A DNA stretch of 64,000 bases from Candidatus Bathyarchaeota archaeon (GCA_963714275.1 CAVQNT010000007.1:96001-160000), one strand, 5' to 3'. Positions 28,503 through 51,639 are shown, counted from the stretch's first letter. Translations and numbers: made by a program. Notes: generated from the sequence alone by a model not told the origin.

Positions 28503-28530
28503 GTTTGGGTTTGGGGATTAAATTTTAATC
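28503..28530 (+). repeat. Cas1-element end motif
   Basis: GTTTGGGTTTGGG followed by GATTAAATTTTAATC. Confidence 0.85.
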
Positions 28531-28609
28531 TTTTTTTTTCTTCTGCTCAATGAATTATTTAAGCTTAAATATTCACGCGCACTCACTTATTCTTAGCGGG
28601 TGATTTGTC

Positions 28610-29041
28610 ATGTCAGCAAAAGAAAATAAGGCGCTCGTGCATCGTTTTTTGAGGAGTCGAACAAGGGGAAGGCAGCCGCCATGGCCGTAATGGACGAGTT
28701 ATGCGCCACTAACATCGTCTATCACGGTGGCGCGGCAGGAAATACGTGGCCTCAAGGACTACAAACAAATGAGCGAGTTGTACAGCGCGTTTCCCGACAT
28801 TCATTTAACCATTGATGACATGGTCGCCGAAGGAGACAAGGTAGCGGTGCGCATTACAATGACTGGCACACACAAAGGTGAATTTATGGGCATCCCTCCT
28901 ACCAATAAGAAGGTGACGATTTGGGCGATCAACATCTACCGCATTGCTGGCGGCAAGATCGTGGAAGAGCTGGGAAAGGCGGATACCTTGGGCTTGATGC
29001 AGCAACTCGGCGTTGTACCCACGCCGAAGAAGGAAAAATAA
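28610..29041 (+). CDS. SnoaL-like ester cyclase family protein, copy 1, frameshifted
   Basis: AFPD..TIDDMVAEGDKVA.R.T.TGTHKGEFMGIPPTNKKV and DTLGLMQQLG. Confidence 0.9.
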
Positions 29042-29643
29042 CCTCCACTAATCGTATTCCGATTTCAGCTTCCCCTCTTTTTCTGTTCGTATAAAGTTTT
29101 TGTTTTTGTGTATTTTTGTTACCCTATCACATAGCAGCTGATAGTTGTCCAGTATCTGCTCTAGCTCTGTTCAACACTGGGGGAATAATCCAGTATTTCA
29201 TGCCGTCTTCACAAAAGTAATACCTGTAGGTCCACTTCTTATGTTTTCCATAATTCCGTGTTTTTTGATTAACTCTTGCAGTTTATCATAGAGTTCAGGA
29301 TACTTGTTTCTAATGATGTATTCGTGACTGTTACCTTGTGTTGACCTGTGCCATTCTGCTTTAGAGAGTTCGTCAATAAGACTCTGCATTTCAGGAGAAA
29401 GTTTCCGTTTCACTGGCTTCAAAATTTAAGCCATCCTTTTATTACCATTTGGTATAATTTTATATCCATTTTTAAACATATATACTTAATGGTTATTCCG
29501 TAGAGTGTTCTAACTAAAAATCAGCAAAAATCTGAAGATGCATATAAATTAATAAAAAAACTAGCTGAGCTAAAAAACTAGATTAAACTTTAATAAAATC
29601 GGTAACTTTAATTCAATAACTAGTTACTGAGAGGTGAATAAGA

Positions 29644-29919
29644 ATGTCAGAAAAAGATTCTGTAGAGTTTAAATGGCTGGATGCTAAACCGATAGGTAAT
29701 CAAACAGTTGTATTTAATTTGGAAGATGGAACGCAAGTAAGGATTAGAGTAGATATAAACAGAGCAGGTGTCGCTATTAACTCCGTCAATCCTGATGGAA
29801 GCCCACAATACCATTTTGATATAGGTATAGCTCAGCAAATAGTTCCTGCACAAAGAAAGTTCAAGTTGCCCAAACAACAAATTGGTCTTCCTAAACCAGA
29901 AAAAAATATCATCGTTTGA
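29644..29919 (+). CDS. Hypothetical protein
   Basis: 91-aa ORF preceded by an RBS-like GAGGTG. Confidence 0.55.
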   Translation: MSEKDSVEFKWLDAKPIGNQTVVFNLEDGTQVRIRVDINRAGVAINSVNPDGSPQYHFDIGIAQQIVPAQRKFKLPKQQIGLPKPEKNIIV

Positions 29920-30765
29920 GCTAGAAACTGAGGGGGTACTATAGTTATCCGAGCTGCAAATCCTTAAAAACTCTTATTTCAATATTAAATCTGTGAACTG
30001 GCTGACGGATTGGTTTGTTATATACCTCCTTCTTGTTCCCTTATTGACTGTTGTGGTTCTATGCTTAAGCTTTTAAATTGTATATTAAGCAAAAAAAGAA
30101 GTGGTTAAGGGATGAAGAAGTAGAAAAGTAGCTAAGTTGAGTTGAGAAAGTGTCTGATCTTTTTTTCTAAGCTATTCCAAAAGCGAAAATAGAACACCTG
30201 CATTTTAAAGCGAAAAACTATATAATTTATATATGTCCAGATAGGTGAAGAGAATGATGACTTGGGATAACCCAATTTTACCTTTACTTTTCACTATCGT
30301 AATTATATCTGGTATTTTAATTCCTCTTCTTATTGTGTTAATATCTTACATACGAATGAATTTGAACAAGAAGAAAAAAGAAAAAATAAAGAAAAGAAAA
30401 TCTCTTAGTTCTAATTTTATTTCGTCATAAGTTTGAAGCGAAAAAGCTAGGGGTAAATGCTTAAAATCGATTCAAAATATTGAGTTATACTTCATAAGAG
30501 TAATTATAATAGTTTCATAAATATATTCTGCTAGTTAGGAGAGAATTTTATGGAAGTAGGTGAACACGAAATAAATAAAGATAAAAAACTTACAATAAAA
30601 GATAAATTATCAATAACAGCACAGGGCATGTTAATGATGGCATCTGCCTTTGAGGTTTTATGGATATACAAAATTTTTTTGGGATTCTAGTCACTAGTTT
30701 AAAAGTAGTCTGGTAATAGTTCCATATTTCTTTTAATGTTTTGGTTCCTTTATGTCCTTGTATTC

Positions 30766-31704
30766 TTATATTCCTTTATGTCCTTGTATTGTATGATTCT
30801 CCGAAAGTATCCATCTATCATGAATATCTCTTTTTATTTTTGCGTCTGTGATTACTCTCACTTCAAACAAGATTCCCTTATTTTTAAGTTCGTTCCTCAA
30901 ATCTTTAAACAATTTTCTGAAGGTCTCATCAGATTTGTCTACAAGCATAAGTATTTTAATTTCCTTTATTTTTCCAGGGTCTAAGGAGGATTCGGATATT
31001 AATTCTAACCCAGGTTTTGTGAAGTATTTGTCTACCCAATGTATGTGGCCTTGGCATGATTTAAGAGTATCCCAAAATACTTTTTTGTTTGTGAATGGTG
31101 TGTCAGGTGATATTAGGGGAGGTCCTTTTTTAATATTATTAAATCCCAAATGTTGTGCTATTTTTGAAATTATTGTTTCTTCTCTCTTAGCGAGGAAGGC
31201 TTCGAAATCGTCAGTTAGCATGTGTTTGAATGCTTCTTTGCTAATTAAGTGAGTTTCAAGAACTTCAATGAATTTTTCTTCGTTTCCTGCAAATTTCTCT
31301 GAGATTATTTGTTTAAGGTAAGTTGAAGGTTTACTGTAACCTTTGACTTGGTTTGTATCTCTCGAAAGCCATGTCATGTTTAGTACTGAATTTATATATT
31401 TTGTTGGCCATTGAATTTGATTTCCAGATTTAGGGAAGATGTGGTCTTGGTTGTGTTGTCTTGCGTTTTTAAGCATTTGCCAAGTTATAAAATCTTTAGC
31501 CCCTTCAAGTGCTATTAATGACATTACGCCCTTATATTTTGAATTGGATTTCGTTTCAGTTTCCTTGAGATGCAGATTTGGGAATTCCTCTTTCATTTTA
31601 AGTATTGTTTTTGGTATTTTACCCCCCCCCTCTTGGATAGCTATTTTTGCGTATCTTGGATTTAACGCCGTAAAAGTGCCTTTAAGAGGCGGTCCACGTG
31701 ACAT
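30766..31704 (-). pseudogene. 5'-truncated GmrSD/DUF1524-like HNH region followed by a PLD-like domain
   Basis: QDHIFPKS...LNMTWLSRDTN; WVDKYF...HDRWI; no DUF262 N-terminus; tandem duplication at the 3' end. Confidence 0.55.
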
Positions 31705-31919
31705 TAACAGTTCAACGTAGCAGTTTGGGTTTTGTTCTAGGATGCTTGATTATGTTAGCATACGTGTTCATACCTCTATAGTAGTTATGCCTAATACTGG
31801 TAGTACTTTAAGGGGTTCAAACAAATAAAAGAGAAAATTGAAATGAACATTGGCACATGATATTATAAGAGTAATAGGCAGCAAATGTCAATAGAATACA
31901 TGTAAGAGAAGGAATCATA

Positions 31920-32997
31920 ATGGTAGATTTACCAAAAACCATGAAAGGGTTGGTTGTCTATGCACCAGGGGATTATAGGCTTGAAGAAGTCCAAGTCCCA
32001 AGAGCGGCTGAAGGTGAAATAGTTATAGAAGTCGAGGCATGCGGTATATGTGCAAGCGATCTAAAGACATATCACGGGGCTCCAAGTATTTGGGGAGGAA
32101 GCGGAAACCCACGTTATATCAAGCCACCGGTGATTCCGGGTCACGAATTTCTAGGTAAGGTTGTCGAAGTCGGCTCACACGTTAAAGGAACCTTCAAGAC
32201 TGATGATAGAGTGATATCTGAGCAAATTGTTCCTTGTTGGGAATGCAAGTTCTGCACAACGGGAAGATACTGGATGTGTCAGAAACACGATTTGTATGGT
32301 TTCCAATCTAATGTAAATGGCGGAATGGCTGAGTATATGAAATTCACTAAGGAAGCGCTGAATCATGTTGTCCCGAAAAATATTCCAATAGAGAAAGCAA
32401 TTTTGATCGAACCGTACTCATGTTCTAAACATTGTGTCGACAGAGCTAACATAGGAAATGATGATGTCGTCGTCTTGTCTGGAGCTGGGCCTCTGGGCCT
32501 CGGCATGGTGGGAGCGATTAGATTGAGGAACCCAAAGACTCTAGTTGTTCTGGACATAAAAGAAAACAGATTGGATCTAGCTGAAAGATTCGGCGCTGAC
32601 ATAACTATGAATCCTGCAAAGCAAAATGTTGTTGAAGAAATAAGGAAAATGACGAATAGTTATGGATGCGATGTTTATATTGAAGCTGACAGGAAATCCG
32701 AAAAGCGTCCAGCAAGGACTTGAAATGATAAGAAAAATGGGTACATTCGTAGAATTCAGCGTATTTAAGGACTTGACAACTGTGGACTGGAGCATCATAA
32801 GCGACCGAAAAGAGCTGAACCTTTATGGGGCACATCTTAGTCCTTACTGCTATGAAACGGTCATAGAATGGATCGGAAACGGCAAAGTTCCAACCGAAGG
32901 AGTAGTAACGCATAAGTTTCCTCTTGAAAAATGGAAAGAAGCCTTTGACGTAGCTGAAAAAGGAGAGGAATCCATAAAAGTAATCTTGGTTCCTTAA
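31920..32997 (+). CDS. Zn-dependent polyol dehydrogenase (erythritol/L-threitol dehydrogenase-like), frameshifted near 32690
   Basis: CGICASD, GHE, C..C.FC.......C and GAGPLG motifs. Confidence 0.88.
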
Positions 32998-33185
32998 AAT
33001 AACTGAAAAGAGAAATCTGAGAAACAATCTTTCCCTACGATTTCCCGGGACGTGCAGCGCGCACACTAGTTCTATGGTTCAATAAATTCGAATTAAATCC
33101 CCATACCCAAACACACACAATTTTACCCCCCACACCAATAGCGGTTCAAATCTGTTAGGACGTTCCAATCTATATACACACTTAG

Positions 33186-34653
33186 TCAGCTCAGCTGGTG
33201 CTGTGAAGCAGTAAAAGTCAAATGGGACGGTTCATTGTGATGATAGACGTTCCAGTTCAAGTAATTTGTGAAGGCTTCGTATAAGACATCCGCAACTTGG
33301 CTTCTACTGATCGCGCAATGATGCTCGAACCCTTTTTTGCATATCTCAGCAAGCAAGGATTGTAGATTGGATATATGGGCCACTCCGTAACATCCAAAGG
33401 TGTTCAAAGGGTTTTCATCCTCATTTGTCAAGAGTCCTTCACCGATGTAGGCGGATATTTCCCCTTTTACGTCGTTCGTAGATAGTCTAACGTATGTGAA
33501 TTCACCAGGTTTTAGTCGGCCGTTCACTGTTCCACAAGAGTTTGACAGTTTTACTGTCTTCTCCAAGATGCTGTGAAATCCCATTGCAATTTCATTAAAA
33601 AAATTTTTGGGTAGGTTGCCGCAGTGAAATAACACCAGTCTGTCAGGATCCTTCCCATAGTTATTGTTCAAGTCAACTAAACCGGGGGGAACTCCCGACG
33701 CTAATTGTAATGCAAGCATACTTAAGGCCCCTGTCACATCCACTTCGCAAGCAGCAGGTAGTAAGTTCTGGCTCAGCATCGACATCACAGTGCAAGGAAC
33801 GACACCAAAGTTCTCCTCCATGGATGTCCAACATTGTATAGCCACGGCGTCTAAGTCTGTTTTCGTTGATCCATCCTTTTAAAACGATGTAAAGTTTCGC
33901 CATCCTCGTAAGTCTCTCGTCAGGGATTTCATTCGTGGAGGTATCAACGTATTTTTTAATCTCCGCTACAGTATCAATAACATCCGGGTTTCTATCCTTC
34001 AACAATTGAGCTTCTACAAGTATCTCAGATAAGTCGATGGTCTCCACGCTAATACCTTGCCGTTCTAGTAGCTTCTCACTATACCTAACGGTGTTAAAGT
34101 CTGCAGGGCGCGCCCCAATCGCGCCTATACGAGCGTTTGATAACCCCTTAACAACCCTGCAGACTGAGCTGAACCATTGAATGTCGTTTTTAAACTCCTC
34201 CGACTTCAAGCCGCAAGTATGAAGCCTAGTTAGTGAGAATTTGATTCCGTATTGCTTAAGGTTGTTACAAAGTGATATCTTGCCGCAAAACGAGTCTCTT
34301 CTTTGGCCCATCTCCATTTTCTCTGGGTCGTCAGGGCTAGCCTGTACAAGTACCGGCACCCTTAATCCCGATAGCCTAATGGCGTCAGCAGCGGATTTCT
34401 CATCACCGAAATTTGGGAGAACAACTATTATTCCATCTATCCCACTGGCGTGACTCCGGAATAGTTCAGCACATTTCTTAGCTTCTCCATATGTTCCGAC
34501 AGTTCCGTATGTGGTTTCTTTTTCATCAAGCACTATCACCTTGTGTCCAATACCTTCAATAACCTTTATTGTTTCCAACCGACCTTTCTGGGCGAGTTCA
34601 ACTGGAAAGAACCCTCTATTTCCAACTATCAATCCAAAAGTGCTACTACTCAT
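33186..34653 (-). CDS. L-fucose/L-arabinose isomerase family protein, frameshifted near 33860
   Basis: NFGDEK, RRDSFCGKIS, IQCW, ACEVD, FHCGN and GFEHH motifs. Confidence 0.85.
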
Positions 34654-34970
34654 AGAATTGTCACCAAACTTTTTTTAAACAAACTGATATAGTAAAGTAA
34701 AAATACTTGTATATTTAACTAGCTACCAAAAGAAGTCATTTTTTCACAAAATCTTTAGAATACATAGCTTATCTAGTAAGTGTTGAAAATGGTAGCAAAC
34801 AAATCTAACATTCTATATGTTTATTCCCATGACACAGATCGTTAGGGTAAACCATATGGATTTGATGTTTCTACGCCGAATATTCAGAAACTAGCAGATA
34901 CCTGTGAGTGAGCTGGGCTGGAACACCTAAAAGAGACGAATACTAATTTTATAGGTCAAATATGAGTCAT

Positions 34971-35612
34971 TTAACCTATTGTTTCATTGATAGAGTCCGC
35001 CATGGAGACTAGCAGTAAGCACATTGAAGTGGCACCTGGGTCTAGTACTCCTTTTGATCTTCCGCCCATTCTGCTTGCGCGGCCTACTTTTGCGACCATG
35101 TTTTTGGTCGAGTCTCTGCCTTCTATCGCTGCTTCTTTCATTGCGTCCAAGGCTTCTTTGAAACTCTTCTCTTCTGCCACTTGGCTTTTGACTGCCTCAA
35201 CTGCTGGTACAAGTGAATCCAGAAGTGTCTTGTCTCCAACCTTGGCTTTCCCTATTCTCTTAATACCGGCTTCGCCTGCTTTTAACATTCTTGCTAAAAC
35301 ATGAGAATCTATAGCATCTTTTCCTTCGCAGACTTTTGCCATTTCTCTGAAGAATGTGCCGTATAAGGGTCCCATTGCCCCACCTATATTGGTCATCAAT
35401 ATTCTGGAAAGGGTTTTCAAGCTGTGTGACAGGTTTCCAGGATTCTTTTTTAATTCTTCTTCGGCTATGGTGAAACCTTTGTTCATGTTTATGCCATGGT
35501 CACCGTCACCAATTGCGCCATCAATTTCGCTCAGATACTGTTTGTTTTTCTGTATGACTTTAATCATGTCATATACGATTTGGCTACCTTCCACATTGGT
35601 GAATGTTTCCAT
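34971..35612 (-). CDS. dhaL: Dihydroxyacetone/erythrulose kinase L subunit
   Basis: DGAIGDGDHG, GGAMGPLYG, GDKTLLD, GRAS and DPGA motifs. Confidence 0.92.
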   Translation of the reverse strand: METFTNVEGSQIVYDMIKVIQKNKQYLSEIDGAIGDGDHGINMNKGFTIAEEELKKNPGNLSHSLKTLSRILMTNIGGAMGPLYGTFFREMAKVCEGKDAIDSHVLARMLKAGEAGIKRIGKAKVGDKTLLDSLVPAVEAVKSQVAEEKSFKEALDAMKEAAIEGRDSTKNMVAKVGRASRMGGRSKGVLDPGATSMCLLLVSMADSINETIG

Positions 35613-35619
35613 AATGCTA

Positions 35620-36621
35620 TCACTTGAATTGTTTCAGTCCTACAGAGTATGCTTCGTAATCCACATACTCTTTCAGTTCTTTGTCAACTTTCATTATTGT
35701 TAAAGTAACCCCAGCCATATCCAAAGATGTGAAGTAATTGCCCACGTAGGGTCGGTATACTGCGATTTCTTTCTTTTCAAGTATGTTATATACTTCATTA
35801 TAAAGTATGTAAAGCTCCAGAATAGGAGTAGCTCCGAGACCTGAAAGCACCACAACGACTTCATCGTTTTTATTAAAAGGTAAGTCAGGTAATACAATAT
35901 TCGTTATTCTCTTAGCAATTCCTTTTGCAGTTTCCAGTTTTGTGGTTCCTAGTCCTGTTTCGCCATGGTGACCAATACCTATCTCCATCATTCCCTTCTC
36001 TATAGTGAAGTTAGGATGCCCTACTTCAGGTATTGTGCAGGGAATCAACCCAAGACTCATGCTTCTGGTATTATTAATCGCCTTTTGAGCAGCAGAAGTA
36101 ACTTCTTCCAAGCTTGCACCTATTGCTGCCTTCGCGCTTCCGATTTTCCACATAAGCACTTCACCTGTAGCCCCTCGCCTGTTTTTTCTATTTGACTTTG
36201 GGGCAGAAGGTACATCGTCATTAGCTATAACTGTTTTCACTTCTATTCCTTCATCGCTTGCCATCTCAATAGCCATGTTAACATTCATTACATCCCCTGC
36301 AAAATTTCCGATAAGACACGCCACACCTTTACCAGAATCCGCCACCTTGAAAGCATCATAGAACATTTGAGCAGGAGGAGACGAAAAAATCTCTCCTACA
36401 GCAACAGCATCAACCATGTTTTGACCAATGTAACCGATAAAGGCGGGTTTGTGACCTGAACCCCCACCAGTTACAATGCCTACTTTATCTTTTATAGGTG
36501 CTTTTCTGTATTTCAGGACTCGAGGATTAGTTGTCTTTGAGATAATCTCTGAGTGTACCTTCACATAACCCTTTATCATATCGTCGACTACATTTCCGGG
36601 ATCATTTATTATCTTCTGCAT
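35620..36621 (-). CDS. dhaK: Dihydroxyacetone/erythrulose kinase K subunit
   Basis: GGGSGHKP, GEIFSSP, NFAGD, GIGHHGE and TSLDMAG motifs. Confidence 0.92.
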   Translation of the reverse strand: MQKIINDPGNVVDDMIKGYVKVHSEIISKTTNPRVLKYRKAPIKDKVGIVTGGGSGHKPAFIGYIGQNMVDAVAVGEIFSSPPAQMFYDAFKVADSGKGVACLIGNFAGDVMNVNMAIEMASDEGIEVKTVIANDDVPSAPKSNRKNRRGATGEVLMWKIGSAKAAIGASLEEVTSAAQKAINNTRSMSLGLIPCTIPEVGHPNFTIEKGMMEIGIGHHGETGLGTTKLETAKGIAKRITNIVLPDLPFNKNDEVVVVLSGLGATPILELYILYNEVYNILEKKEIAVYRPYVGNYFTSLDMAGVTLTIMKVDKELKEYVDYEAYSVGLKQFK

Positions 36622-36624
36622 ACT

Positions 36625-38010
36625 TCACTTTCCCCCTCTATTACTAATCATTTGATCTTTGAAAGATTTTTTTTCAAGAAAATACATTCTTTCAACCTTT
36701 GGTTGAGATCCACCACCTTGAAATTCAGATTTCAACCAAGCATCTATGATTGTTTTTGCCAGTTCTGGACCTACAACTCTTGCTCCCATAGTAATTATCT
36801 GCGCGTTGTTGCTTTTCCTCAACCGTTCCGCGGAATAAACATCATGGCATGTACCAGCGTAGATGCCCTCAACCTTGTTGGCCACAATGGCCATTCCTAG
36901 CCCAGTACCACATATAAGAATCCCCCTATCAAATCTTCTCTTCCGAACCTCTGAAGCAAGGTTGTATCCTATATCGGGATAATAGATTTGTGTGTTACCT
37001 TTTGCATAATTAAGGTCCACAACGGGAATACCTTTACTTGTTAAATGTTCGAAGATGACTTTCTTGAGTATTAGCCCTTCATTATCCGAATCAATTGCTA
37101 TTTCCTTTTTAGCAATTGTTGAACTTGTAAATTCCTCTTGAGCATGTGAGACATCTTTAGCAATAGATTTCAAGTTTCTTAGTCCTTCCACTGCGAGCGC
37201 CTCACCTGATTCAGCGAATCTTCTCCATATTGCACATAGCCTATTTAGTTCCTCGAATCCCGGATCAAACGATTCGATAACTAGTGGTCCTGTATAACCT
37301 ATTGACTTTAATGCCGTGAAGAATTCTTTCCATGGTACTAATCCAGTTCCAGGTATTCCTCTGTTACTTTCACACATATGGACATATCCTAGGTATTCTT
37401 TTCCACAGGTTTTCACTGCGCCTGCGAAACTAGTCTCTTCTCTGATCATGTGGAAGGAATCCAGGTGTACCTTCACATTTCCAGTACCCACATCTTTGCA
37501 ATATCTTACAGCATCATCTGCTATATTCAAAAAGTGAGTTTCAAAACGGTTAACTGGTTCAACTGCGATGAAAAGATCATTCCTTTCTTTTGCATATTCT
37601 GCTACTTCTCTCATTGCTGCTATTGACCATTCCCATTCTTGCCCCGTTCTTGGTTTCCCCGTCAAGTATCCCCATGCTGCATAATTCACACCTCCCAATA
37701 TTCTTGACTCAAGTTCGATATTTATGTCTACTAATTTCTTCATGGAGTTCACTCCATTTGCTCTTATCTTTGAGTCCGGAGATATGAAATTGGTTTTTTT
37801 ATTGAGAGTGGTTGTGGTAATAATCTCTATGCCAGCTTCATTAGCTTTTGTTTTTACTTGCTTTATCGGGAAGGTTTCAGGATGGGCTATTGCTATATCA
37901 AGAACCTCAAATCCCAATTCTTTGGCTTTAGGTATTATCCAAAGGTCTCTTTCCGAAAAATCCTCTGACCATATGAACGAGTCAACACCAAACTTGGACA
38001 TTTTTCGCAC
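36625..38010 (-). CDS. Fusion of a ketose 3-epimerase-like TIM barrel and an RpiB/DerI-like isomerase
   Basis: EPVNRFE, HLDSFH, ESNRG.PG.G and IESF, then YPD, CGTGLG..I.ANK, SNNAQ and GARVVG in one frame. Confidence 0.85.
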   Translation of the reverse strand: MRKMSKFGVDSFIWSEDFSERDLWIIPKAKELGFEVLDIAIAHPETFPIKQVKTKANEAGIEIITTTTLNKKTNFISPDSKIRANGVNSMKKLVDINIELESRILGGVNYAAWGYLTGKPRTGQEWEWSIAAMREVAEYAKERNDLFIAVEPVNRFETHFLNIADDAVRYCKDVGTGNVKVHLDSFHMIREETSFAGAVKTCGKEYLGYVHMCESNRGIPGTGLVPWKEFFTALKSIGYTGPLVIESFDPGFEELNRLCAIWRRFAESGEALAVEGLRNLKSIAKDVSHAQEEFTSSTIAKKEIAIDSDNEGLILKKVIFEHLTSKGIPVVDLNYAKGNTQIYYPDIGYNLASEVRKRRFDRGILICGTGLGMAIVANKVEGIYAGTCHDVYSAERLRKSNNAQIITMGARVVGPELAKTIIDAWLKSEFQGGGSQPKVERMYFLEKKSFKDQMISNRGGK

Positions 38011-38235: not shown

Positions 38236-38264
38236 GATTAAATTTTAATCCCAACCCAACCCAA
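38236..38264 (+). repeat. Cas1-element end motif (left type)
   Basis: GATTAAATTTTAATC followed by CCAACCCAACCCAA. Confidence 0.8.
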
Positions 38265-38300: not shown

Positions 38301-39975
38301 TTATCCTTCAGTCTGAGTCTTCGCTTTAGCTATGAGCTCAACCAAGTTCAGGATCAGTTTGTAGTTGTCCTCAACGTAGCAGAAAGGTTCATTAAGGAAT
38401 GTTAGGTCTCCGATTGCAACTACCTTGCCATTCCCCTTATTAACCAAGACAATGGTTGCGTAATTGTCCGCTTTCTCAGCAACAGAGGAACATGTGTCGT
38501 TGGAGGTCCAAGCCACTCCTTTCCCTGTTGAATGAATGCCTGCGGCTGTGAATAAGACAAGCGAATTCAGATTCCTTGTAAGAGAGTTATACTCGAAATT
38601 TTTTATGTATATATTTCTATAAATCCCGTAATGTTCAGCCTCGTTGTAGAGGTATCCTTTTGCGAAGGATATTCCGAATCTTGTTGCGAGCGAATTCACT
38701 GGGGCGATGATGCCTTGAATTAGTCCTTCCTGCCCAATGTACTCCCAAGCTGGGTCATAGAACATCAGAAGTAACCCTCCTCTATCAACAAACTCACTGA
38801 TGCTGGAACACTCTTCATCCATATAGACTTGTGTTGGACAAGCAACTATGAGGCATGAGGCGTATTCAGACTTGGCGCCCAACTCATCGGGTTGAGTGAC
38901 GAAGCTTACAGTCAAGTTTCTACTTGCGAGCTCCGCAATGAGAATATCGAGATCCCACCACGAAACCTGGTTACCGTGAGAAAGATCAACTATGACATCA
39001 CCATTACTAGATGCAGATGCTGCTGAAGAGATAGGAGAACTGGAGCTCTGAGAGGTTACTTGCGGAGGAAGATATATGTAATGTATTGCTGGAGGTGGGT
39101 GAAGACCGTCTAGAATCTTCAGTGTCAAGTTGCCTGAACTGATTGAGGTATAATTAGAGTATCCTTGCAGGGATGCATATGAGCTGCTGTTGTGTGATGT
39201 TAGCTCAATGACATTGTATGTTGATAAATTTGCTAGTCTTGCTGCCTTCCCGATTGCAGCTTGGAGAGATCCTGCCTCATCAACTAATCCCACATTCACA
39301 GACTTCGCTTCCAAGGTAAATCATCCCCTTTTCCAACTGAATTGATGATAGTTTCAGCTGACCTGTCCTGCTCTTATTTACTGCTGACACGAAATTGTCT
39401 AAGGCATGACTCATGTTGTAAGGAAAGAGAAGTGCAGAGAAGCCTGTGACCTTGTAAGGTCCAGTCTCTAATGTGGTTTCTGATGGAATAAGGGTGGATG
39501 GTCCTGTTCCAATCACACCGATGCTTCCAACAAACGATGTGGGAAGGGCGTAGACGTAATTGGCTGCCACTGCTATATAGTATCCTCCGGAAAGCGCTGT
39601 GACGATTGAAGCTACAACAGGCTTCGTTTCTTTAAGTACCATTAAGTCAAGGTAAACTTGCTCAACATAGTCCGCGTAGCCTCCTCCCGAATCAATCACG
39701 AGTACAACAGCCCTTACGGAATCATTGTGCACCGCCTGATTTACAAGATCAGTATACAAGCTGACATCTGAAGGCGTCTCCACATAACCTTCAATCCTTA
39801 TTATGCCAACGGTTCCCTTTTGTACAACTGGTATAACCGATGGGAACCTAAAAAAAACCTGCGGCAAGATTGCTGAAGCAGCCAAGATGCAGATAACGGT
39901 TATATATAGAATGTCACGTTTCCCCAACCTAAACCCTTTCCCTTCGTTGCCCACACTTGAAAAGATACTCATCAA
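38301..39975 (-). CDS. S49/SppA peptidase fused to a DUF4350/GATase-like domain, frameshifted near 39300
   Basis: IDSGGG, LSGGYYIA, VGSIGV and GLVDE; then DLSHGN, GGLLL and GKVVAIGD. Confidence 0.75.
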
Positions 39976-42062: not shown

Positions 42063-42596
42063 ATGAGAATGCTAGTGGTTCTCGTCTCACTGTTAATGCT
42101 TTTCGCTGTCTCGGGCTACCTTACTTTTTTGGCGGACTCACCTATTCAGACTGCATTAAGTCTGCAACAAATGCAATCAGCAAAAAACGATTTTACGTCA
42201 TACTTCAACGTGTCCAACCCTCCTCGGCTTGAAAATTTCAGTTACTCATTTTCTCCTCCGGTCTCCATGAACCGTGCTGTTCAGATCGCGTTTGAAAGCG
42301 GAGGCTGGAACGAAACCTCGCTTAAAAATAGAACAATACTCGTTTTCCTAGCGTACTGCGCCTTCGTGAACAGCTCTTCGGTCAGCGGCTTCGAATTAAT
42401 AAGAGTAGTAACAGAACCGACCCAAGATTACTCGCCTGTCCAAATTGGCGACACAACCTACCGATATCTCTGGACTATCATCATCAGTCAACCTGGTCCT
42501 ATCCAAAGTATCCCGCCACCAGGCTACTATTATGTTGACGCAGCAACAGTGAACTATTGTCTCCAGGCATCATATGCTAGCCAGATTAAAATTTAA
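42063..42596 (+). CDS. Secreted hypothetical protein (PepSY-like tail)
   Basis: Signal peptide; A.QIA...W...YYVDAAT motif. Confidence 0.55.
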   Translation: MRMLVVLVSLLMLFAVSGYLTFLADSPIQTALSLQQMQSAKNDFTSYFNVSNPPRLENFSYSFSPPVSMNRAVQIAFESGGWNETSLKNRTILVFLAYCAFVNSSSVSGFELIRVVTEPTQDYSPVQIGDTTYRYLWTIIISQPGPIQSIPPPGYYYVDAATVNYCLQASYASQIKI

Positions 42597-42598
42597 TC
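42584..42598. repeat. Exact copy of the 15-bp palindrome
   Basis: GATTAAAATTTAATC followed by a C/T-rich then A/C-rich low-complexity tract. Confidence 0.8.
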
Positions 42599-42800
42599 TT
42601 TTTCTTCTTTCACCCGTTCGTTACCGTTCTCTCGTATTCGTTCACTCTCTGATTAGCCCATTCCCTCTCTCACTCTCTCTCAACACAAAAAAACAAACAA
42701 ATAAAAAAAACACACACAAAAACACACAAAAACAAAAACTTTATACGAACAGAAAAAGAGGGGGAAGTTGAAATCAGAATGATAGCAGTAGATGCTATGT

Positions 42801-43231
42801 TCACTTCTTTGGCGTGGGTACAACGCCGAGTTGCTGCATCAAGCCAAGAGTATCAAACCTTGCCCAGCCTTCAACGAACTTGCCGCCAGCAATGCGGTCG
42901 ATCTGATCCCCCACACCGTCACCTTCTTATTGGTAGGGGGGATGCCCATCAATTCACCTTTATGTGTGCCAGTAAATGTCCAGCGTGCGGCTACCTTGTC
43001 TCCTTCGACGACCATGTCATCCAAGGTCCAATAAATGTCGGAAAACGCGTCATAGTACGCGCTCATAAATTGTTTGAAGTCTTTGAGACCGCGTATATCG
43101 CTGCCTATGCCACTATGAAAGACGTAGTTAGTGGCGTATGTCTCGTCTATTCCGGCCATGGTGGTCGCCTTCCCCTTGTTCCACTCCTCATAAATCCGAC
43201 GCGTGAGTGCCTTAAGATCTTTTGCTGACAT
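42801..43231 (-). CDS. SnoaL-like ester cyclase family protein, copy 2, frameshifted near 42900
   Basis: DDMVVEGDKVAARWTFTGTHKGELMGIPPTNKKV; inverted paralog of 28610-29041. Confidence 0.9.
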
Positions 43232-43329
43232 GACAAATCACCCGCTAAGAATAAGTGAGTGCGCGTGAATATTTAAGCTTAAATAATTCATTGAGCAGAA
43301 GAAAAAAGAAAAGAAATTCTCGATAGAAG

Positions 43330-43420
43330 TTAGAAATCAAAATTAGGCGTTCTGGGAATCCATGTTTCTCTTTCGCCTCTCAGAAACTTGAATAACAAGG
43401 CTTCTTCATTAATCAGCGTT
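43330..43420 (-). pseudogene. cas1 3'-end remnant
   Basis: Translates TLINEEALLFKFLRGERETWIPRTPNFDF* versus cas1 TLINEEALIFAKYLRGERETWAPRIAVT*. Confidence 0.88.
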
Positions 43421-43628
43421 TTTCTTCCGTTTACCCTATACTGCCTGACTCAGTATTAATCAGCGTCCTATCCTAGCTAGTATAGTGCACACACAGTTAG
43501 TATCAGCGTCCATCTCTATGCCTTAACCAACCACTACCTTTTCTTGCAGTGCTCTGCCTTATTTCCAGAATCATAGCAGAGCAGTCCATCTAATGCTTTG
43601 ATTCCATTGATTTTTTTGTGTGTGTGTG

Positions 43629-43661
43629 CATTAAAATTTAATCCCAAAACCCAAAACCCAA
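43629..43661 (+). repeat. Cas1-element end motif (left type)
   Basis: CATTAAAATTTAATC followed by CCAAAACCCAAAACCCAA. Confidence 0.8.
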
Positions 43662-44026: not shown

Positions 44027-44036
44027 AGCAGCTCTC

Positions 44037-44952: not shown

Positions 44953-44975
44953 ATTTTAGTCCCACACACAAGATC

Positions 44976-46168: not shown

Positions 46169-46443
46169 ATAAAAAACATCTCTTTGGGATTATAATTCAA
46201 AATTTCTATGCTAAACGATTAAAGACTTTTGGTGCATGTGTTTTTTGTATGATTTGTATGATTAATTGGTAGATTAGTTAATTGATTGATATAGTGAGAG
46301 AGAGATTGAGATTGGGTGATCGTTAAGTTGGAATAAAATTTCAATTCCTTCCTTAAAATTTAACCTTTTTCTTCTGTTCTGTGTGCTCTCTACTTTCATA
46401 CAACAAATATATCAAGGGAATGGCTAGCTAGCCAAGTATACGA

Positions 46444-47114
46444 TTGAAGGATGTGCTAATGAAAAAAAGAGTGTTACTGAACCTTGTAAGTGTGGCAGCT
46501 ATCTCAGTTATCTCTGCTATAATTTTGTGGGATATCCTGTTCTTACAGAGAAGCCTGGGACAAATTGGACTATTCAGCATCTTTTTTGTCTCAATGATTA
46601 GCCACATGACAATCGTGGCTAGAGATATGTTTTTGCCTTTGTTTCTATCACTCAAGCTGGAGTACAATCCTATTCTTCTCGGAATACTTGCTGGTTGGGG
46701 AGGAGCATTAGGTGATGTTTCTTCCTATTTTCTGGGCTGGGGAATTGGTGAGTCCATACGAAATGAGCAAGGAGGAGGCAAAATCATCTGACTCGATGGA
46801 TAAAACAACATGGTCTGTGGGCGGTCTTATTGTTCGCTGTAACTCCATTGCCTGACACGCCGATTCTTATTCTCGCGGGATCAAGCCAACTTCCATTCAA
46901 GAAGCTACTACTCGTCGAGGGCATAGGTAAAACCGCATTATACAGCCTAGGGGGATTTGTGGGCAGTTTTATAATGGAGGATTTCAGTGGCACAATTGGA
47001 AGTTTGTATTCCTCCATTGCCATAGTTGTTTTATCAATAATATTCTGCATCCTAATCACATGGAACAGAAGTAGGAAGGCTCTTTTCGGCTGGCTCGAGA
47101 AGTTTATACACTAA
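46444..47114 (+). CDS. VTT/DedA (SNARE-associated) membrane protein, frameshifted
   Basis: GGALGD..SYFLG, FAVTPLPD and GIGK motifs. Confidence 0.8.
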
Positions 47115-47191
47115 CTGCAGCAAGTAGCAACTATTCTAGGAATCCACATTTCTCGTCCGACTCTTAGATACTTTGCAAATAGTAAGACTTC
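47111..47191 (-). pseudogene. cas1 3'-end remnant
   Basis: Translates EVLLFAKYLRVGREMWIPRIVATCCS*; lies 17 bp outside the intact element. Confidence 0.82.
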
Positions 47192-47208
47192 AGAGGGCTC
47201 GCGAGAAA

Positions 47209-47280
47209 GATTAAAATTTAATCCCCAAACCCAAACCCAAACCCAAACCCAAACTACCTCACTCTACCTCACTCTCTCTC
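47209..47280 (+). repeat. Left end: 15-bp palindrome, (CCCAAA)5 and CTCACTCTACCTCA
   Basis: Read directly; inverted match to 51562-51639. Confidence 0.9.
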
Positions 47281-47359
47281 TAGTAATACCTAAAGAAACC
47301 AAGAAACCAACAAACAATCAAACAAACGAACAAACAAACAGAACAAAAACAAATAAAAA

Positions 47360-48183
47360 TTACTCTGAGCAGTCGGTAAGTGAAGGTAGATTGGGCAATT
47401 TACTACTAACCCAATCATGGAGAGTTTGGCATGCCTTCGGTCTATCTATGGATCCTTTCGAGTCCATCCATTCTTTCCAAACATCATAGAACTCTTTCAT
47501 CTCCTTCAATAGGGGGTCAACCTTTTTATCAACTAATATATCCTTCTTAAGATCTGAAAAGCTGTTGTAGTTTCTCTCTCTAACCCAATGACTTAGGTAG
47601 ACGAGTCTACTAGTTATGTACATCATCATGTCTTGGCAAAGCCCTGCTGTACCTTCAAGGCTTTTCTTCCAGTCAGGATCTCCAAGCCATTGTTGGGCTC
47701 GTGCGTAGTCAGTAACGTCCTGAGCAAATAGACTCCATGTGTAGAATATGTTAACAACGCTATTGTAGAGTCTTAGCTCCTTGTCAAAGAACATAAGACT
47801 TATGAAGATATGGCGTAGCCAAGCTGTAGTCATATCCCACAAGAATCTCTGACCAATTTGTTCTTGCTTACGCTATCAATGAATTCTTTAATATTACTCC
47901 TGTGCAGTTCCAGATTCCTCAAAATATAGCCGATTGTGGTAGTACATGTCAGACCATATCTCGAGATATCGCTATTTATTGCGTCTATTCCTTGATCGAG
48001 ATATACCATCTCAATATTCCTATTGATCTCTGACCTTCGTTGCAGTCTGAATTGGTACCAAGTGATTATTATACTTCCTATTATGCCGCTTCCAAAGAGA
48101 AGTGTGAGAATGATATTCCAATCCAAATCCATGAATAAAAGATAACCGACAATGTATTTAATCTTTAACAAGGCTGATTTCAT
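47360..48183 (-). CDS. Cargo protein with an N-terminal transmembrane segment; ORFs 47830-48183 and 47360-47842 are probably one frameshifted gene
   Basis: Overlapping co-oriented ORFs immediately downstream of cas1. Confidence 0.5.
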
Positions 48184-48189
48184 AATAGT

Positions 48190-49224
48190 TCAAGTGACTG
48201 CGATTCTTGGTGCCCAAGTTTCCCGTTCTCCTCTAAGGTATTTAGCGAAAATTAAGGCTTCTTCGTTAATCAATGTTTCAAGGGTTTGTCTTTGACCGTG
48301 TTTGATTCTGGGAATTTCAACCTTAGACTCAAAAAAGAGGTTAAGCTTCCTCATCAAGTCTGAAGTCTTGGAATCGTTCAAGTATTCTCTTTTGCCCTTC
48401 TTAATCCTTGAAAGCCTTTCAGTCTTAACCGTGAAGTCTTTAACCTTGAGATTTTGGCAATATTGAACCAAAAAATCATCGATTAGATAACGATAGAGTT
48501 CTTGAAAATCGCATACTAAACTGGGCTTTCCGAACTGAATTGAATGCAAAAAGCCTAAGTAAGGTTCAAGCTTCGCCTTTATTATGGCTCTGTGAATCTT
48601 CCACTTTAAGACTTCATAGGCAAGATTGAAAGTGTTGTTCATGCCATCATAGGCTAAAAATGTCTCCCTAGAATGAGGTCTAACCTTTTCTGGAAACAGC
48701 ATGAAAATTCTACGAAAGTAAGCCCTAGAGTATTTGGCTTCAAAAGCTGACAGTCTCATCCTAATATGGTCTAGACTTTCTGACTCAATTCCTTCAATCT
48801 CATGTTTAAAACCCAAATTATGCGGTTCTAAACCATACTTTTCTAAGACTTTGTTCTGTCCCTCAATCTTGCATTGAACGAACTGTTTAGCGATACCGAT
48901 TCCCTTCCCGTTCTGCAAAGCTTCATACTGACATACTCTGGTTTTGACGTGGGAATCGTCTTCTAGGCTTCTCAACATCGCAACAGGTCTTCCTCTCTGA
49001 GTCAAGATTAAGACATCTATGTCCCAGAATCCTAGAGACGCTAAAGCTCCTGTGGAAACAGAGTTACCGCTTTTTAGAATGACTTCTCCTATTTCTTGTT
49101 CAAACAATGGATACCTGTCAACATTGTCATTTTTGTCCTTAACTACGAAACAGCCTTTCTCCATGCCTAAATACGAGCCTTGACCGTCAAGAACAAGTTT
49201 TAAGACTTTAGAACCTTGAACCAT
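48190..49224 (-). CDS. cas1: Solo Cas1 integrase (casposase-like)
   Basis: FEAKYSRAYF (E), NNTFNLAYEVL, LEPYLGFLH (H) and SLVCDFQELYR (D/E); the catalytic set appears intact. Confidence 0.93.
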   Translation of the reverse strand: MVQGSKVLKLVLDGQGSYLGMEKGCFVVKDKNDNVDRYPLFEQEIGEVILKSGNSVSTGALASLGFWDIDVLILTQRGRPVAMLRSLEDDSHVKTRVCQYEALQNGKGIGIAKQFVQCKIEGQNKVLEKYGLEPHNLGFKHEIEGIESESLDHIRMRLSAFEAKYSRAYFRRIFMLFPEKVRPHSRETFLAYDGMNNTFNLAYEVLKWKIHRAIIKAKLEPYLGFLHSIQFGKPSLVCDFQELYRYLIDDFLVQYCQNLKVKDFTVKTERLSRIKKGKREYLNDSKTSDLMRKLNLFFESKVEIPRIKHGQRQTLETLINEEALIFAKYLRGERETWAPRIAVT

Positions 49225-49308
49225 TATTTCACTCTCTTTTCATCACATTATCATTACGCAAGATAGATATATAAGAATTGTGATGATAAAGTAATGAGGA
49301 TGTAGTGA

Positions 49309-49470
49309 ATGATACGAAGTCTTAAATTAAAAAGAACACTTTCAGAATCAGGTAGAACTTTAGTTCTCAGAATACCTAAAGACATTGAAAGGTCTCTTTT
49401 GCTTAAGCTTGGAAACGAAGTCTACATATGGGTTGAAAATGGAAAAATTATCGTAGAACCTATAAGTTAA
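49309..49470 (+). CDS. AbrB/MazE/SpoVT-family regulator (53 aa, not in ORF track)
   Basis: SGRTLVLRIPKDIERSLLLKLGNEVYIWVENGKIIVEP; divergent from cas1. Confidence 0.8.
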   Translation: MIRSLKLKRTLSESGRTLVLRIPKDIERSLLLKLGNEVYIWVENGKIIVEPIS

Positions 49471-49907
49471 GTCTTTCACTTAGCAAATTTAAGACTTCAG
49501 CTCGTCAACCCCATAGAAGTGAACTCCTCACTCCTCAGCCTTCTTCCTTCCATACTCAATGGCTTCGTTGATAGTTTCACATTCATACAGTTCAGAGCTG
49601 AAAAACGAGAAACGGTAAATACCTTCTTGTTTCTTCTCTGTAACTTCATATTTAACCTTAAATTTCCTCACTTTTTCACCTCACTTTGTGGCGGTTCAAA
49701 GACCAAAGTGTAAGCCTTTTTCCCTTCAAGCACCTCTTTGACTTCGTCAATTTTCACGAAATATCGAACGTGTTTTATGACTACAGAGAGCTTCAAACTG
49801 TTCTTGGTTAAACTGACATAGCCACAGTCTTTCCAAACCATAACCCTTTCACCTCTCGAATACTGTCTTTTTTATCCTTCAAGTAAGCATTGATACGTTT
49901 CAAATTG

Positions 49908-50351
49908 TCAAACTCGAGACTTTTGAGTTTCAAGGTACTCTTTGACTTGTCCATCTTGCTTTCCATACCCGAAAACAACTCGTGGAGGAGGCTTCTTTCC
50001 TTTGCTTAGACACCTTACGGTTGAAGTTGTCTTAAGTCCCTGCATCAAGACATAGTTTTTTAAAGGTTCAATGTTTGACAGTCTCGCAACCCAGTCCATG
50101 ATTTTAACGTTTGTTTCCCATCTTACTCTGCGGTTGAAAATTACCGAAAAATTTCTCGAAATGTATCCATGTACCAGTTTGTGCCGAATTCTAATTAGAT
50201 GTTCTCGACTGCTTGACTCCAAAATTACGAATCCGTTCTGGTGATGGTACTTGCACACCATAAAAGCCCAAAATTTCACGATTGACAATGAAGTATTATC
50301 TATGTCTAGGCGAACTGTGTCGTTGCTCCAGTCTCCCCAATAAGGACTCAT
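49908..50351 (-). CDS. Hypothetical protein, possibly a minimal AEP primase-polymerase-like fold
   Basis: VRLDID (DxD), FVILESS..H and STVR...KPPPRVV; weak motif-level resemblance only. Confidence 0.35.
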   Translation of the reverse strand: MSPYWGDWSNDTVRLDIDNTSLSIVKFWAFMVCKYHHQNGFVILESSSREHLIRIRHKLVHGYISRNFSVIFNRRVRWETNVKIMDWVARLSNIEPLKNYVLMQGLKTTSTVRCLSKGKKPPPRVVFGYGKQDGQVKEYLETQKSRV

Positions 50352-50828
50352 TTAGGATTCGACCTCTTTCTGATCCCATGTTTTTTCCATATCGAGATAT
50401 TTGTCTGGGTTTCCCGTGATGTTCGTGGCTTTGATTGTTAGGAATTGCTTCTTAGGTGGATGTTGGCTAGCAAGCATCATGGCTTTGTATAGTTCACGTC
50501 CAGAACCATGCATCTGGATTCTTTTTGATTCTCCGTCCACTTTGCCATAAACTGCAACATGTTTGCCTCTGGGAGCTCTTCTTCTTACAACTTTAGTGGG
50601 TTTTCTGGGTTTTTTCCTATACTTGGTCGGAGTGTATTTTGATGGCTCAGATTTGGGTTTCCGTCCCTTAAATTCCCGCACATAGCCTAAGAGCTTCTGC
50701 CTCTTCATGCCCATGTGATGAGCTTGAAGGTCTCGTTGAATAGCGTTTGCACTCATGCCTTTCGCTGAGTCAGCCTTGATTCGGTCAACCTGCTCTTTAG
50801 ATGCTCCCCCTTTCTTAGGCATAGTCAA
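50352..50828 (-). CDS. Highly basic hypothetical protein with an HTH-like N-terminus
   Basis: KGMSANAIQRDL; K/R-rich linker. Confidence 0.55.
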   Translation of the reverse strand: MTMPKKGGASKEQVDRIKADSAKGMSANAIQRDLQAHHMGMKRQKLLGYVREFKGRKPKSEPSKYTPTKYRKKPRKPTKVVRRRAPRGKHVAVYGKVDGESKRIQMHGSGRELYKAMMLASQHPPKKQFLTIKATNITGNPDKYLDMEKTWDQKEVES

Positions 50829-51155
50829 AAGCCCTTCTCAAGTTCTATCAGCTCATGCGCTACTCGGAGATAATCCTCAATCGTAGAACGCTTAAAATAC
50901 AGTCCTAGAGATGTTGCTATTTGGTTCTCGGGAATTCCACTCTGCAAAAGTTGTTTGACTTTGTCGATATTGTATTTTCGTCTTGATGAGCCTTCGCCTT
51001 TGCTCCATTGGTCTAAAAATTGATTATTAAGGAGCTTTGCTGATTCTGGAAGAGTCTTTTTTGAATTCTGTATCTAAGTCTTTTTTAGGCTTCTTTTTTT
51101 CTTTTAGACTTTTTTCTATGTCCTTCAGTTCTTCTACGGTTGATTTTTCAGTCAC
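50825..51155 (-). CDS. HTH protein, frameshifted
   Basis: GTG start overlaps the upstream stop; KVKQLLQSGIPENQIATSLGLYFKRSTIEDYL. Confidence 0.5.
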
Positions 51156-51367
51156 TGTTTAGTCTCCTTTTCAATTTCGATTTGATGTTTTAGGTGCTGA
51201 AGCAGAATTTCCAGAGAACGCTTGACTTGTGTTGTCGTTAATTTTGGATTGTAGAGGACGACGGCGAAAGCATTAGGAAGAGCCTTTGGGCTTTCGCCTA
51301 GAATGTTAATGAAGTCTTGAGGGATGTACATACTGTTTTCTTTGTTTATGCTCATTTGTCTGTCCAT
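51152..51367 (-). CDS. AbrB-like small regulator
   Basis: INKENSMYIPQDF..ILG pattern; first gene of the operon. Confidence 0.5.
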   Translation of the reverse strand: MDRQMSINKENSMYIPQDFINILGESPKALPNAFAVVLYNPKLTTTQVKRSLEILLQHLKHQIEIEKETKQ

Positions 51368-51420
51368 ATCATTTCACTATGAAAATCTGAGGATTTGGAT
51401 AAGTATATAAAACTTATGCT

Positions 51421-51470
51421 TCAATTTATATCAAATTGATATAGATTTGTTTCAATTTACTATAAATTGA
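51421..51470. promoter_or_regulatory. Two tandem palindromic operators upstream of the element operon
   Basis: TCAATTTATATCAAATTGA (51421-51439) and TCAATTTACTATAAATTGA (51452-51470), each followed by TATAG. Confidence 0.65.
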
Positions 51471-51561
51471 TATAGGTTTATTTCTCTGTTCTGACTGTGT
51501 GTGGTGCGTATCTTTCTCTGTTTGTCTGTCTGACTGACTGTTCGTCTGACTGACTATCCTC

Positions 51562-51639
51562 TGAGAGAGAGGGAGAGAGAGGTTGAGGTAGAGTGAGTTA
51601 GAGAGTTTGGGTTTGGGTTTGGGGGATTAAAATTTAATC
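51562..51639 (+). repeat. Right end: TGAGGTAGAGTGAG, (TTTGGG)3 and the 15-bp palindrome
   Basis: Read directly; inverted match to the left end. Confidence 0.9.

Follow-up and report, generated by a model that had tools for sequence, protein, structure and literature searches.

Casposons have been proposed as the ancestors of CRISPR adaptation. Two of their families lie closest to the system described here. Family 1 is found in Thaumarchaeota, and the casposase of Candidatus Nitrosopumilus koreensis is described, in part of PMC8464041, as making a 13-bp duplication at a specific target while tolerating varied donor ends. Family 2 (Aciduliprofundum boonei and Methanosarcina mazei) is characterized by a duplication of about 14 bp and a partly palindromic target (excerpts of PMC6563490, PMC9939771 and PMC6452270). 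Tandem insertion of casposons at a reused site is known (a passage of PMC6563490), and the duplicated target site of a casposon is one proposed source of the CRISPR repeat (a passage of PMC6452270). Here we analyse a 64,000-nucleotide stretch of DNA (hereafter the window), C7:96001-160000 of a 2.64-Mb archaeal genome in 10 contigs, in which a near-palindromic 15-mer, GATTAAAWTTTAATC, recurs between gene blocks and flanks an intact element encoding a Cas1-family integrase. In our reading, to which we assign a probability of roughly 0.8, this palindrome is the preferred integration site of casposase-like Cas1 DNA transposons in Bathyarchaeia.

The system is most like the family 1 casposons (Thaumarchaeota; Candidatus Nitrosopumilus koreensis AR1), with which it shares terminal inverted repeats, a 13-bp target-site duplication, a strict target combined with varied donor ends and a Cas1 integrase of about 345 amino acids (aa; 344 here) that has no recognizable C-terminal helix-turn-helix. 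Unlike family 1, it has no protein-primed DNA polymerase of family B (PolB; 0 of 9 elements here), although a passage of PMC6452270 calls the polymerase invariable in casposons. Whereas family 1 targets one gene, ef-2 (its 3' end) or another, the target here is an AT-rich palindrome that the elements appear to multiply themselves; tens of sites per genome, microsatellite ends, a small gene for a protein resembling an archaeo-eukaryotic primase (AEP) and a Bathyarchaeia host are further differences. With family 2 the system shares the Cas1 integrase, inverted ends, tandem arrays (as in M. mazei) and signs of recent mobility, as far as these are covered in parts of PMC6563490, PMC9939771 and PMC6452270, whereas PolB, an HNH nuclease, a casposase with a C-terminal helix-turn-helix and tRNA-gene targets are features of family 2. 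Of the traits by which casposons are recognized, we find a Cas1 with conserved catalytic residues, terminal inverted repeats and a flanking target-site duplication; a family B polymerase within the element is lacking.

A palindrome with microsatellite arms

The exact 15-mer occurs five times in the window (28516, 38236, 42584, 47209 and 51625) with none expected, as 100 dinucleotide-preserving shuffles of the window contained not a single match. With up to 2 mismatches there are seven matches, against 0.56 expected (largest number in a shuffle, 3); the two added copies lie at 43629 (CATTAAAATTTAATC) and at 29581, the latter having no arms and being probably fortuitous. An initial annotation of this DNA had listed six positions, which we recover as five exact copies plus 43629 within 2 mismatches. 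It had also placed degenerate copies near 3625, 33091 and 46350, and a typical arm is present at each: the first is GTTAAAATTTAAA at 3626, with TTTGGGTTTGG as the arm on its left, and the others are listed in Table 1. In the 43629 copy, a non-consensus outer base accompanies a CA-type arm.

Across the genome we counted 18 exact 15-mers and 91 copies with up to 2 mismatches. A microsatellite arm, pyrimidine- or C-rich when read outward, adjoins at least one side of 80 of the 91 copies, so that the CCCAAA/TTTGGG and T/C flanks initially noted in the window hold genome-wide, and 45 of the 91 carry two. Among 20,000 random positions, by comparison, 5.5% had one arm and 0.09% had two. All 18 exact copies bear arms, and the commonest pairing is a CCCAAA-type with a TTTCTC-type arm (20 of the 45 two-arm sites).

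A 13-bp target-site duplication

The 15-mer consists of a target-site duplication of 13 bp, ATTAAAWTTTAAT, to which each adjoining terminal inverted repeat contributes its first base. Among 172 sites, the base adjoining the 13-mer follows the type of arm: it is C beside 65 of 72 CCCAAA arms and 67 of 68 TTTCTC arms, G beside 12 of 18 CACACA arms and T beside all 14 CCTTCC arms. In two Cas1 elements of other Bathyarchaeia (L021 and L022), the inner 13 bases are identical between the two copies and the outermost bases are not. Because the adjoining base tracks the arm and the outer bases differ in L021 and L022, the 15-mer resolves into a 13-bp duplication with one end base on each side. The 15-bp repeated unit implied by the initial annotation therefore needs correcting, its outer G and C coming from the neighbouring element ends.

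The two copies around an element are mostly direct repeats. Each of the three full-length Cas1 elements in this genome lies between sites that match completely as direct repeats but not once one of them is reverse-complemented, and the inverted ends begin directly inside the sites. The element on contig C2 has the asymmetric variant ACTAAATTTTAAT at both ends (0 mismatches direct, 3 inverted), and all six pairs with asymmetric site variants are direct. Overall, the direct relation fits better in 15 pairs bounded by inverted repeats, three from this genome and 12 from other Bathyarchaeia DNA (Table 1; L093 and L094 are one element and were entered once).

Comparison of filled with empty sites leads to the same conclusion. 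The genome G031 (L021) has a 5.3-kb Cas1 element with (CCCAAA)5-6 ends flanked by ATTTAATTTTTAT, and in its relative G044 the same flanks are contiguous around a single ATTTGATTTTTAT. Likewise, G024 (L163) has a 6.2-kb Cas1 element flanked by ATTAAACTTTGGT, whereas in G064 and G062, of the same genus, one site copy joins the left flank to the beginning of the right flank; G024 additionally lacks about 390 bp further to the right of the element. Both comparisons document an insertion that duplicated 13 bp of target sequence, and they show that the element ends start exactly with the microsatellite. A T-tract beside the site, serving as a required 'leader' like the TTT of N. koreensis, was also considered and dropped, because neither G044 nor G064 has such a tract at its empty site.

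A different account, also offered in the initial annotation, makes the palindrome a part of the element's terminal inverted repeat, each module bringing its own copies. Being nearly palindromic, the 15-mer could pass for a continuation of the inverted ends, of which its outermost bases are indeed part, and the centre base is inverted in four pairs. We nevertheless regard this account as highly improbable, and as refuted for the 13-bp core, because the relatives' empty sites hold the 13-mer once with the element absent, because asymmetric variants are duplicated directly, and because perfect inverted ends of at least 100 bp halt exactly at the 13-mer, with the centre base breaking the symmetry in nine pairs.

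Sites cluster in islands and follow Cas1

The initial annotation had put forward enrichment in islands over core as a check. In this genome, 19 clusters that make up 9.4% of the sequence contain 71 of the 80 arm-bearing sites. A neighbour lies within 10 kb of 65 of the 80, compared with a mean of 35 and a maximum of 53 for random placement (1000 trials). Among 31 related genomes, only 3 have the exact 15-mer (18 copies here, three in G002 and one in G004). The arms on the exact copies, the clustering and the presence in 3 of 31 genomes together argue that the motif is not a general intergenic signal.

The sites are instead associated with Cas1. A tblastn search detected Cas1 at full length three times in the genome, along with about two dozen fragments, most of which cover the last 30-45 codons; a site lies within 5 kb of 18 of the 26 Cas1 loci (random mean 5.0, maximum 13). 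Around relatives of this Cas1, the 15-mer was found 55 times (17 exact) in 780 kb from 57 genome-contig loci, 55 of which are assigned to Bathyarchaeia or Bathyarchaeota, and 46 times (17 exact) in 587 kb from 80 metagenome loci. The family is abundant, with 2239 homologues at E <=0.001 and 449 relatives in the metagenome scan. In this genome, which is the largest among the 31 related genomes (2.64 Mb versus 1.1-2.2 Mb), the sites mark the majority of the variable islands, and the 13-mer offers a practical marker for such islands and for module edges in Bathyarchaeia assemblies.

The palindrome might instead be a host feature that marks intergenic regions, for instance a terminator, a regulator site, or a bidirectional promoter or TATA-like box; it is AT-rich, resembles a TATA box and is located between genes. 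The site offers TAA in two frames per strand, and the open reading frames (ORFs) 42063-42596 (+) and 51627-51941 (-) take their last codons and stop from one (IKI-stop and KIKF-stop); a side effect of the site on transcription may exist. As an explanation of the palindrome itself, however, a host feature is scarcely credible: exact copies without arms are absent, copies are confined to less than a tenth of the genome and missing in exact form from 28 of the 31 relatives, and copy number follows the Cas1 elements.

In G010, a genome of the same family (L159-L161), there are 16 Cas1-fragment matches and zero exact 15-mers, and arms of the usual kinds adjoin sites of the form GTTAAAWTTTAAC. Drift of the preferred site between lineages is possible.

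From single insertions to arrays: a proposed route

We propose that the two element ends are linked by the Cas1 integrase one to each strand of the site, at positions 13 bp from each other, and that repair would then copy ATTAAAWTTTAAT to both sides of the insert. Each insertion would turn one site into two, and a near-palindrome could be used from either side; further elements would consequently tend to land beside earlier ones. Repeated insertion might in this way yield kilobase modules strung between one short repeat and confined to a few islands. The element ends consist of hardly anything beyond pyrimidine- or C-rich microsatellites of the CCCAAA, TTTCTC, CACACA or CCTTCC types. Copies without Cas1, some with ordinary cellular genes, retain ends and sites and were presumably moved in trans.

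Strings of at least three sites with elements between them are found in four other loci (L017, L031, L037 and L080). Two units illustrate modules that would depend on a Cas1 supplied from elsewhere, and they support, outside the window, the initial suggestion of non-autonomous modules mobilized in trans: L017 158-4878 has matched CACACA-type ends and sites, encodes a PKD-domain surface protein and an ABC-2 transporter, and has no Cas1; L048 7226-10784, whose ends are perfect over 60 bp, retains just a Cas1 tail beside HEPN/AbiV, DUF6680 and methyltransferase genes. The idea of a self-regenerating palindromic Cas1 insertion site is supported by the 15 direct pairs, the two empty-site comparisons and the strings elsewhere. 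Its extension to the window, as an array built by Cas1 insertion, is supported in part: one of the five intervals there is an intact element and another a decayed SnoaL/Cas1-tail module.

Several observations weigh against integration at the palindrome as the full explanation. Matched ends bound only 47224-51624, so that four of the five window intervals between sites have no matching inverted ends, and the site at 28516 abuts sequence that is internal in paralogous elements. Synteny with six congeners is lost from about 24.75 kb to about 53.43 kb; these island edges fall away from the outermost motif copies. No filled-versus-empty comparison could be obtained for this genome itself across the relatives: the island flanks lie on different contigs in every relative, leaving no empty site for the window; G002 loci with sites gave no clean junction against this genome; and three further site clusters of this genome are wholly accessory or have edges away from the site. 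Two further searches count for neither side: an exact 38-nt pattern of site plus right flank had no match in metagenome contigs, and in one sequencing run with a 0.10 share of words, short contigs cover parts of the element, with no joint across it. Furthermore, the inverted relation is better in four pairs, by the centre base only (Table 1), and a degenerate pair on C2 (344087/350623) is ambiguous, with 3 direct versus 2 inverted mismatches. The centre base alone, at 9 direct versus 4 inverted, is not decisive. Discordant centre bases could possibly reflect assembly collapse of near-identical end-plus-site copies or exchange between copies. Finally, a 5.4-kb segment on C6 (469852-475250; L009), which codes for a Cas1 fragment, an SSB-like OB-fold protein and a TFIIE-alpha-like protein, misfits the simple model: the inverted repeat that bounds it, perfect over more than 110 bp, takes in the site-like GGTTAAAATTTAACA and the TTTGGG arm outside it.

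Some of these points invite the explanation that the array arose mainly by recombination, through homologous exchange between microsatellite ends or sites or through an unrecognized site-specific recombinase, with the Cas1 elements as mere tenants. In its favour, the arms differ in most intervals of the window, a site is joined to element-internal sequence at 28516, and flanks with mismatched centre bases occur. The pairing of arms is also uneven. TTTCTC arms on both sides are found at none of the 45 two-arm sites, where arm frequencies would predict about 5; this hints at selection or rearrangement following insertion, and one speculative reason would be instability of long perfect palindromes. 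CCCAAA-type arms on both sides occur at one of the 45, and the outer flanks of the three intact elements of this genome are both of the class opposite to the element's own ends. Even so, recombination as the main cause is improbable: Pfam searches of the 108 window ORFs found no integrase or recombinase family besides Cas1, clean insertions with duplications are documented by the two empty-site comparisons, and recombination presupposes sites that have already multiplied. Integration at the palindrome by Cas1 thus remains our preferred reading, with rearrangement added to it in the window.

The intact element and its genes

The intact element of the window is one of three full-length Cas1 units of this genome, which measure 4.4-6.4 kb (Table 1). 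Pfam and NCBIfam searches recognized the Cas1 domain alone in its integrase. The residues E162, H227, D239 and E242, mapped to E. coli E141/H208/D218/D221 by motif and by the list in part of PMC9939771, are kept in at least 98% of 121 homologues, and with this conserved catalytic set the integrase looks active. In a phmmer search of the PDB, it is nearer to the CRISPR Cas1 4n06 (4.4e-24) than to the family 2 casposase 6opm (3.8e-11).

None of nine inverted-repeat-bounded Cas1 elements (4.2-7.7 kb) matched PolB (PF00136, PF03175) in Pfam and NCBIfam searches that covered 25 of the 63 listed ORFs for the three elements of this genome and 51 of 82 for the others, the omitted ORFs being mainly shorter and often overlapping. 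The largest ORF in these elements, of 531 aa, matched no family. All three PolB loci of the genome lie outside elements. One of them, a 752-aa family B polymerase at 57882-60140 (-) in the window, lies in a stretch of 50-52% G+C with 72-88% identity in relatives, and is a chromosomal gene rather than a component of the Cas1 elements. A split PolB of two ORFs (G000:C2:470903-472097) has the C2 481638 site and two Cas1 tails at a distance of about 9 kb; it may be either a paralogue of the cellular PolB or what is left of an element that had a polymerase.

Two accessory ORFs stand upstream of Cas1 in the window element. The 147-aa product belongs to a family in which D16 and D18 are invariant and H69 nearly so, and 17 of 30 members match the AEP-like family PF24387, all below threshold (best 22.5 bits, cut-off 27). 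Its structural model (pLDDT 93.5) has AsfvPrimPol as the best Foldseek match (E 0.012), and VIA-align gave middling values, with Z 7.5 for the LigD polymerase domain and 6.7 for AsfvPrimPol, in a range of 7.5-5.5 that also covers RepB', archaeal primase, PrimPol and CAPP. We therefore consider that the protein probably has a minimal AEP fold, as judged from the model. Elements of the TTTCTC type have an ORF related to it (hhalign probability 78%). A PDB sequence search with its profile (A1) returned a sole match to myosin, judged spurious.

For the 158-aa product (model pLDDT 86), the N-terminal domain scored weak to middling values against the DNA-binding domains of Tc3 (Z 6.0) and SETMAR (5.6), in a range of 6.0-5.1. 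It resembles a transposase DNA-binding helix-turn-helix, a putative function suggested by the predicted fold. Pfam gave nothing consistent for this family (B158), and ESM Atlas look-ups with both accessory ORFs reached 0.81, which is chance level.

Relation to CRISPR arrays and integrons

CRISPR arrays have repeats of about 23-55 bp, similarly short spacers, Cas2 and a leader. The present arrays share with them a Cas1-family integrase, a partly palindromic repeat that is doubled at each integration, the resulting alternation of repeats and inserts and a largely free donor; unlike them, the repeat is 13 bp (15 with the end bases) and the inserts are mobile elements of 1-8 kb with their own ends, the window intervals measuring 1.0-9.7 kb. 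No Cas2 was found in this genome, which is 91% complete, and neither leader polarity nor effector genes were seen, no systematic scan for CRISPR arrays having been made. The AEP-like protein may have a link to the biology of CRISPR-associated primase-polymerases (CAPP): in both cases an AEP-fold protein is encoded beside Cas1, and the Prim-Pol 7nqd is among the structural matches (Z 5.5, middling), whereas here the protein is a minimal 147-aa domain inside a transposon. Integrons rely on the tyrosine recombinase IntI, an attI site and cassettes ending in imperfect palindromes of 57-141 bp. None of the 108 window ORFs matched a family of tyrosine or serine recombinases, and the palindrome is 13 bp and doubled by insertion.

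We found no description of such elements in Bathyarchaeia in the open literature, supplementary tables being outside the search. It is possible, although rather doubtful, that they form a large undescribed branch of Cas1 transposons in Bathyarchaeia that has swapped the polymerase for a minimal primase-polymerase, is palindrome-specific, accepts nearly any microsatellite-ended donor and builds arrays that take in Cas1-less cellular and defence cassettes. If so, it would be a living analogue or relative of the hypothesized step from casposon duplication to CRISPR repeat, and a cassette-capture system comparable in effect to integrons. On our preferred reading, this Cas1 family already provides in nature what the CRISPR-origin model requires, with a short, near-palindromic site copied at each integration, loose donor ends and arrays, and it does so without the supposedly invariable casposon polymerase, having instead an AEP-like gene whose function is suggested by its fold.

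A decayed array to the left of the intact element

Between 28.5 and 47.2 kb lies an array that has decayed and been rearranged, with strain-specific genes interspersed (Table 1). The SnoaL, sugar-catabolism and S49/SppA blocks named in the initial annotation are present by Pfam. In the six congeners, no DNA match was found to 27300-47208, except for the SnoaL module, 40128-40359 and a multi-copy small gene. Each of the six SnoaL loci in the genome has a site no more than 5 kb away. To the right of the 28516 site, the T-tract is internal in three paralogues, between the Cas1 stop codon and SnoaL; this joining of a site to element-internal sequence indicates rearrangement or off-target joining rather than a clean insertion. 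The decayed module at 42599-43628 was aligned with paralogues on C10 and C3.

The half-site at about 33.09 kb and the site at 38236 bound the sugar block. Homologues of Dak1/Dak2 lie 3-5 kb from Cas1 in L082, where there are no clear sites. The sugar and SppA blocks are strain-specific, but they have no matching inverted ends, so that they are at most candidate cargo of Cas1 insertion. To the right of 51639, the flank CTTCTTCTCAGGTCTATT and a zinc-ribbon ORF recur directly beside a site in L080, so the array probably continues toward 53.4 kb.

Table 1. Coordinates of sites, elements and genes, and the site pairs compared (window positions unless a contig or locus is named).
Feature	Position	Strand	Remarks
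Site copy	28516..28530	.	TTTGGG arm on left; T-tract abutting on right
Degenerate half-site	33086..33105	.	C-rich arm CCCCATACCCAAACACACA follows; marks downstream end of sugar-catabolism block
Site copy	38236..38250	.	CCAACCC arm on right
Site copy	42584..42598	.	T/C-tract arm on right; ORF 42063-42596 terminates within site
Site copy CATTAAAATTTAATC	43629..43643	.	Flanked by (GT)n arm and CCAAAA-type arm
Degenerate site	46351..46365	.	CTTAAAATTTAAC at 46352, 13-mer with 2 mismatches; then T/C arm CTTTTTCTTCTG of recurrent end family
Left target-site copy of intact Cas1 element	47209..47223	.	13-bp core 47210-47222; 47223 (C) is first base of left inverted end
Right target-site copy of intact Cas1 element	51625..51639	.	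100% identical to 47209-47223, direct orientation (repeat family D8)
Polymerase-less Cas1 transposon, 4.4 kb	47224..51624	-	CCCAAA-type imperfect terminal inverted repeats
Cas1-family integrase, 344 aa	48190..49224	-	Pfam PF01867 7.8e-46; TIGR00287 4.6e-47
Accessory gene, 147 aa	49908..50351	-	40 homologous ORFs beside Cas1 in other loci
Accessory gene, 158 aa	50352..50828	-	30 homologous ORFs; N-terminal three-helix domain
Own element (window)	C7 143209/147625		CCCAAA-type ends; inverted arms 47236-47281 and 51578-51623, 46 nt, 76% complementary
Own element	C4 99114/105159		TTTCTC-type ends; inverted repeat >=110 bp, perfect
Own element	C2 931101/937506		TTTTTCTTC-type ends; inverted repeat near-perfect
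Direct pairs	own C7, C4, C2; L021, L022, L029, L031, L037, L045; L078, L093/L094, L099, L133; L163; L080		
Centre-base-inverted pairs	L017 158/4878; L017 4878/12587; L048 7226/10784; own C6 469853/475237		Discordant with direct duplication
Interval between sites	28531-38235		SnoaL paralogue; fragments duplicated from C2 259.6-264.4 kb; split-gene sugar block
SnoaL module paralogue	28531..29119	+	SnoaL at 28727-29041 (Pfam)
Strain-specific sugar-catabolism block	31920..38010	-	ADH, fucose isomerase, Dak2, Dak1, RpiB/AP-endonuclease (Pfam); two genes split; without matching inverted ends
Interval between sites	38251-42583		SppA-like gene and unknowns
Strain-specific S49/SppA-like gene, split	38301..39975	-	Without matching inverted ends
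Decayed 1-kb module	42599..43628	-	SnoaL 42839-43231 (Pfam) and Cas1 C-terminal remnant 43351-43419 (tblastn); unlike arms
Interval between sites	43644-47208		Small genes; one belongs to a winged-helix family of 9 members

Other observations in the window

At 44673-44954 (+) lies a small gene, about 90 codons long, from a nine-copy family of this genome; all six congeners have it too. The sequence at its 3' end, ATCAAATAAAT, is similar to a half-site and in the window copy abuts the element arm CCCACACAC; no mate was found for this element end beside the small winged-helix gene (44948). Within the island and just left of the first site, 26682-27404 (-) encodes a CAP12/Pycsar-effector TIR domain (PF10137, 7.9e-33); its homologues in L014, L110 and L017 lie near Cas1 elements, the L017 one (13322-13738) immediately to the right of a site.

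Rfam found no family in the window, and it contains no tRNA. Four genes are split: a nucleotidyl transferase (12437-13190), a zinc ADH (31920-32997), a fucose isomerase (33186-34653) and the S49/SppA gene (38301-39975). They are either pseudogenes or the result of assembly indel errors, and one lies within conserved core sequence. The 230 bp at 40128-40359 are present in all six congeners (73-81% identity) and have a second copy, 88% identical, at C2 143360-143591; they may be a captured duplicate of a core gene.

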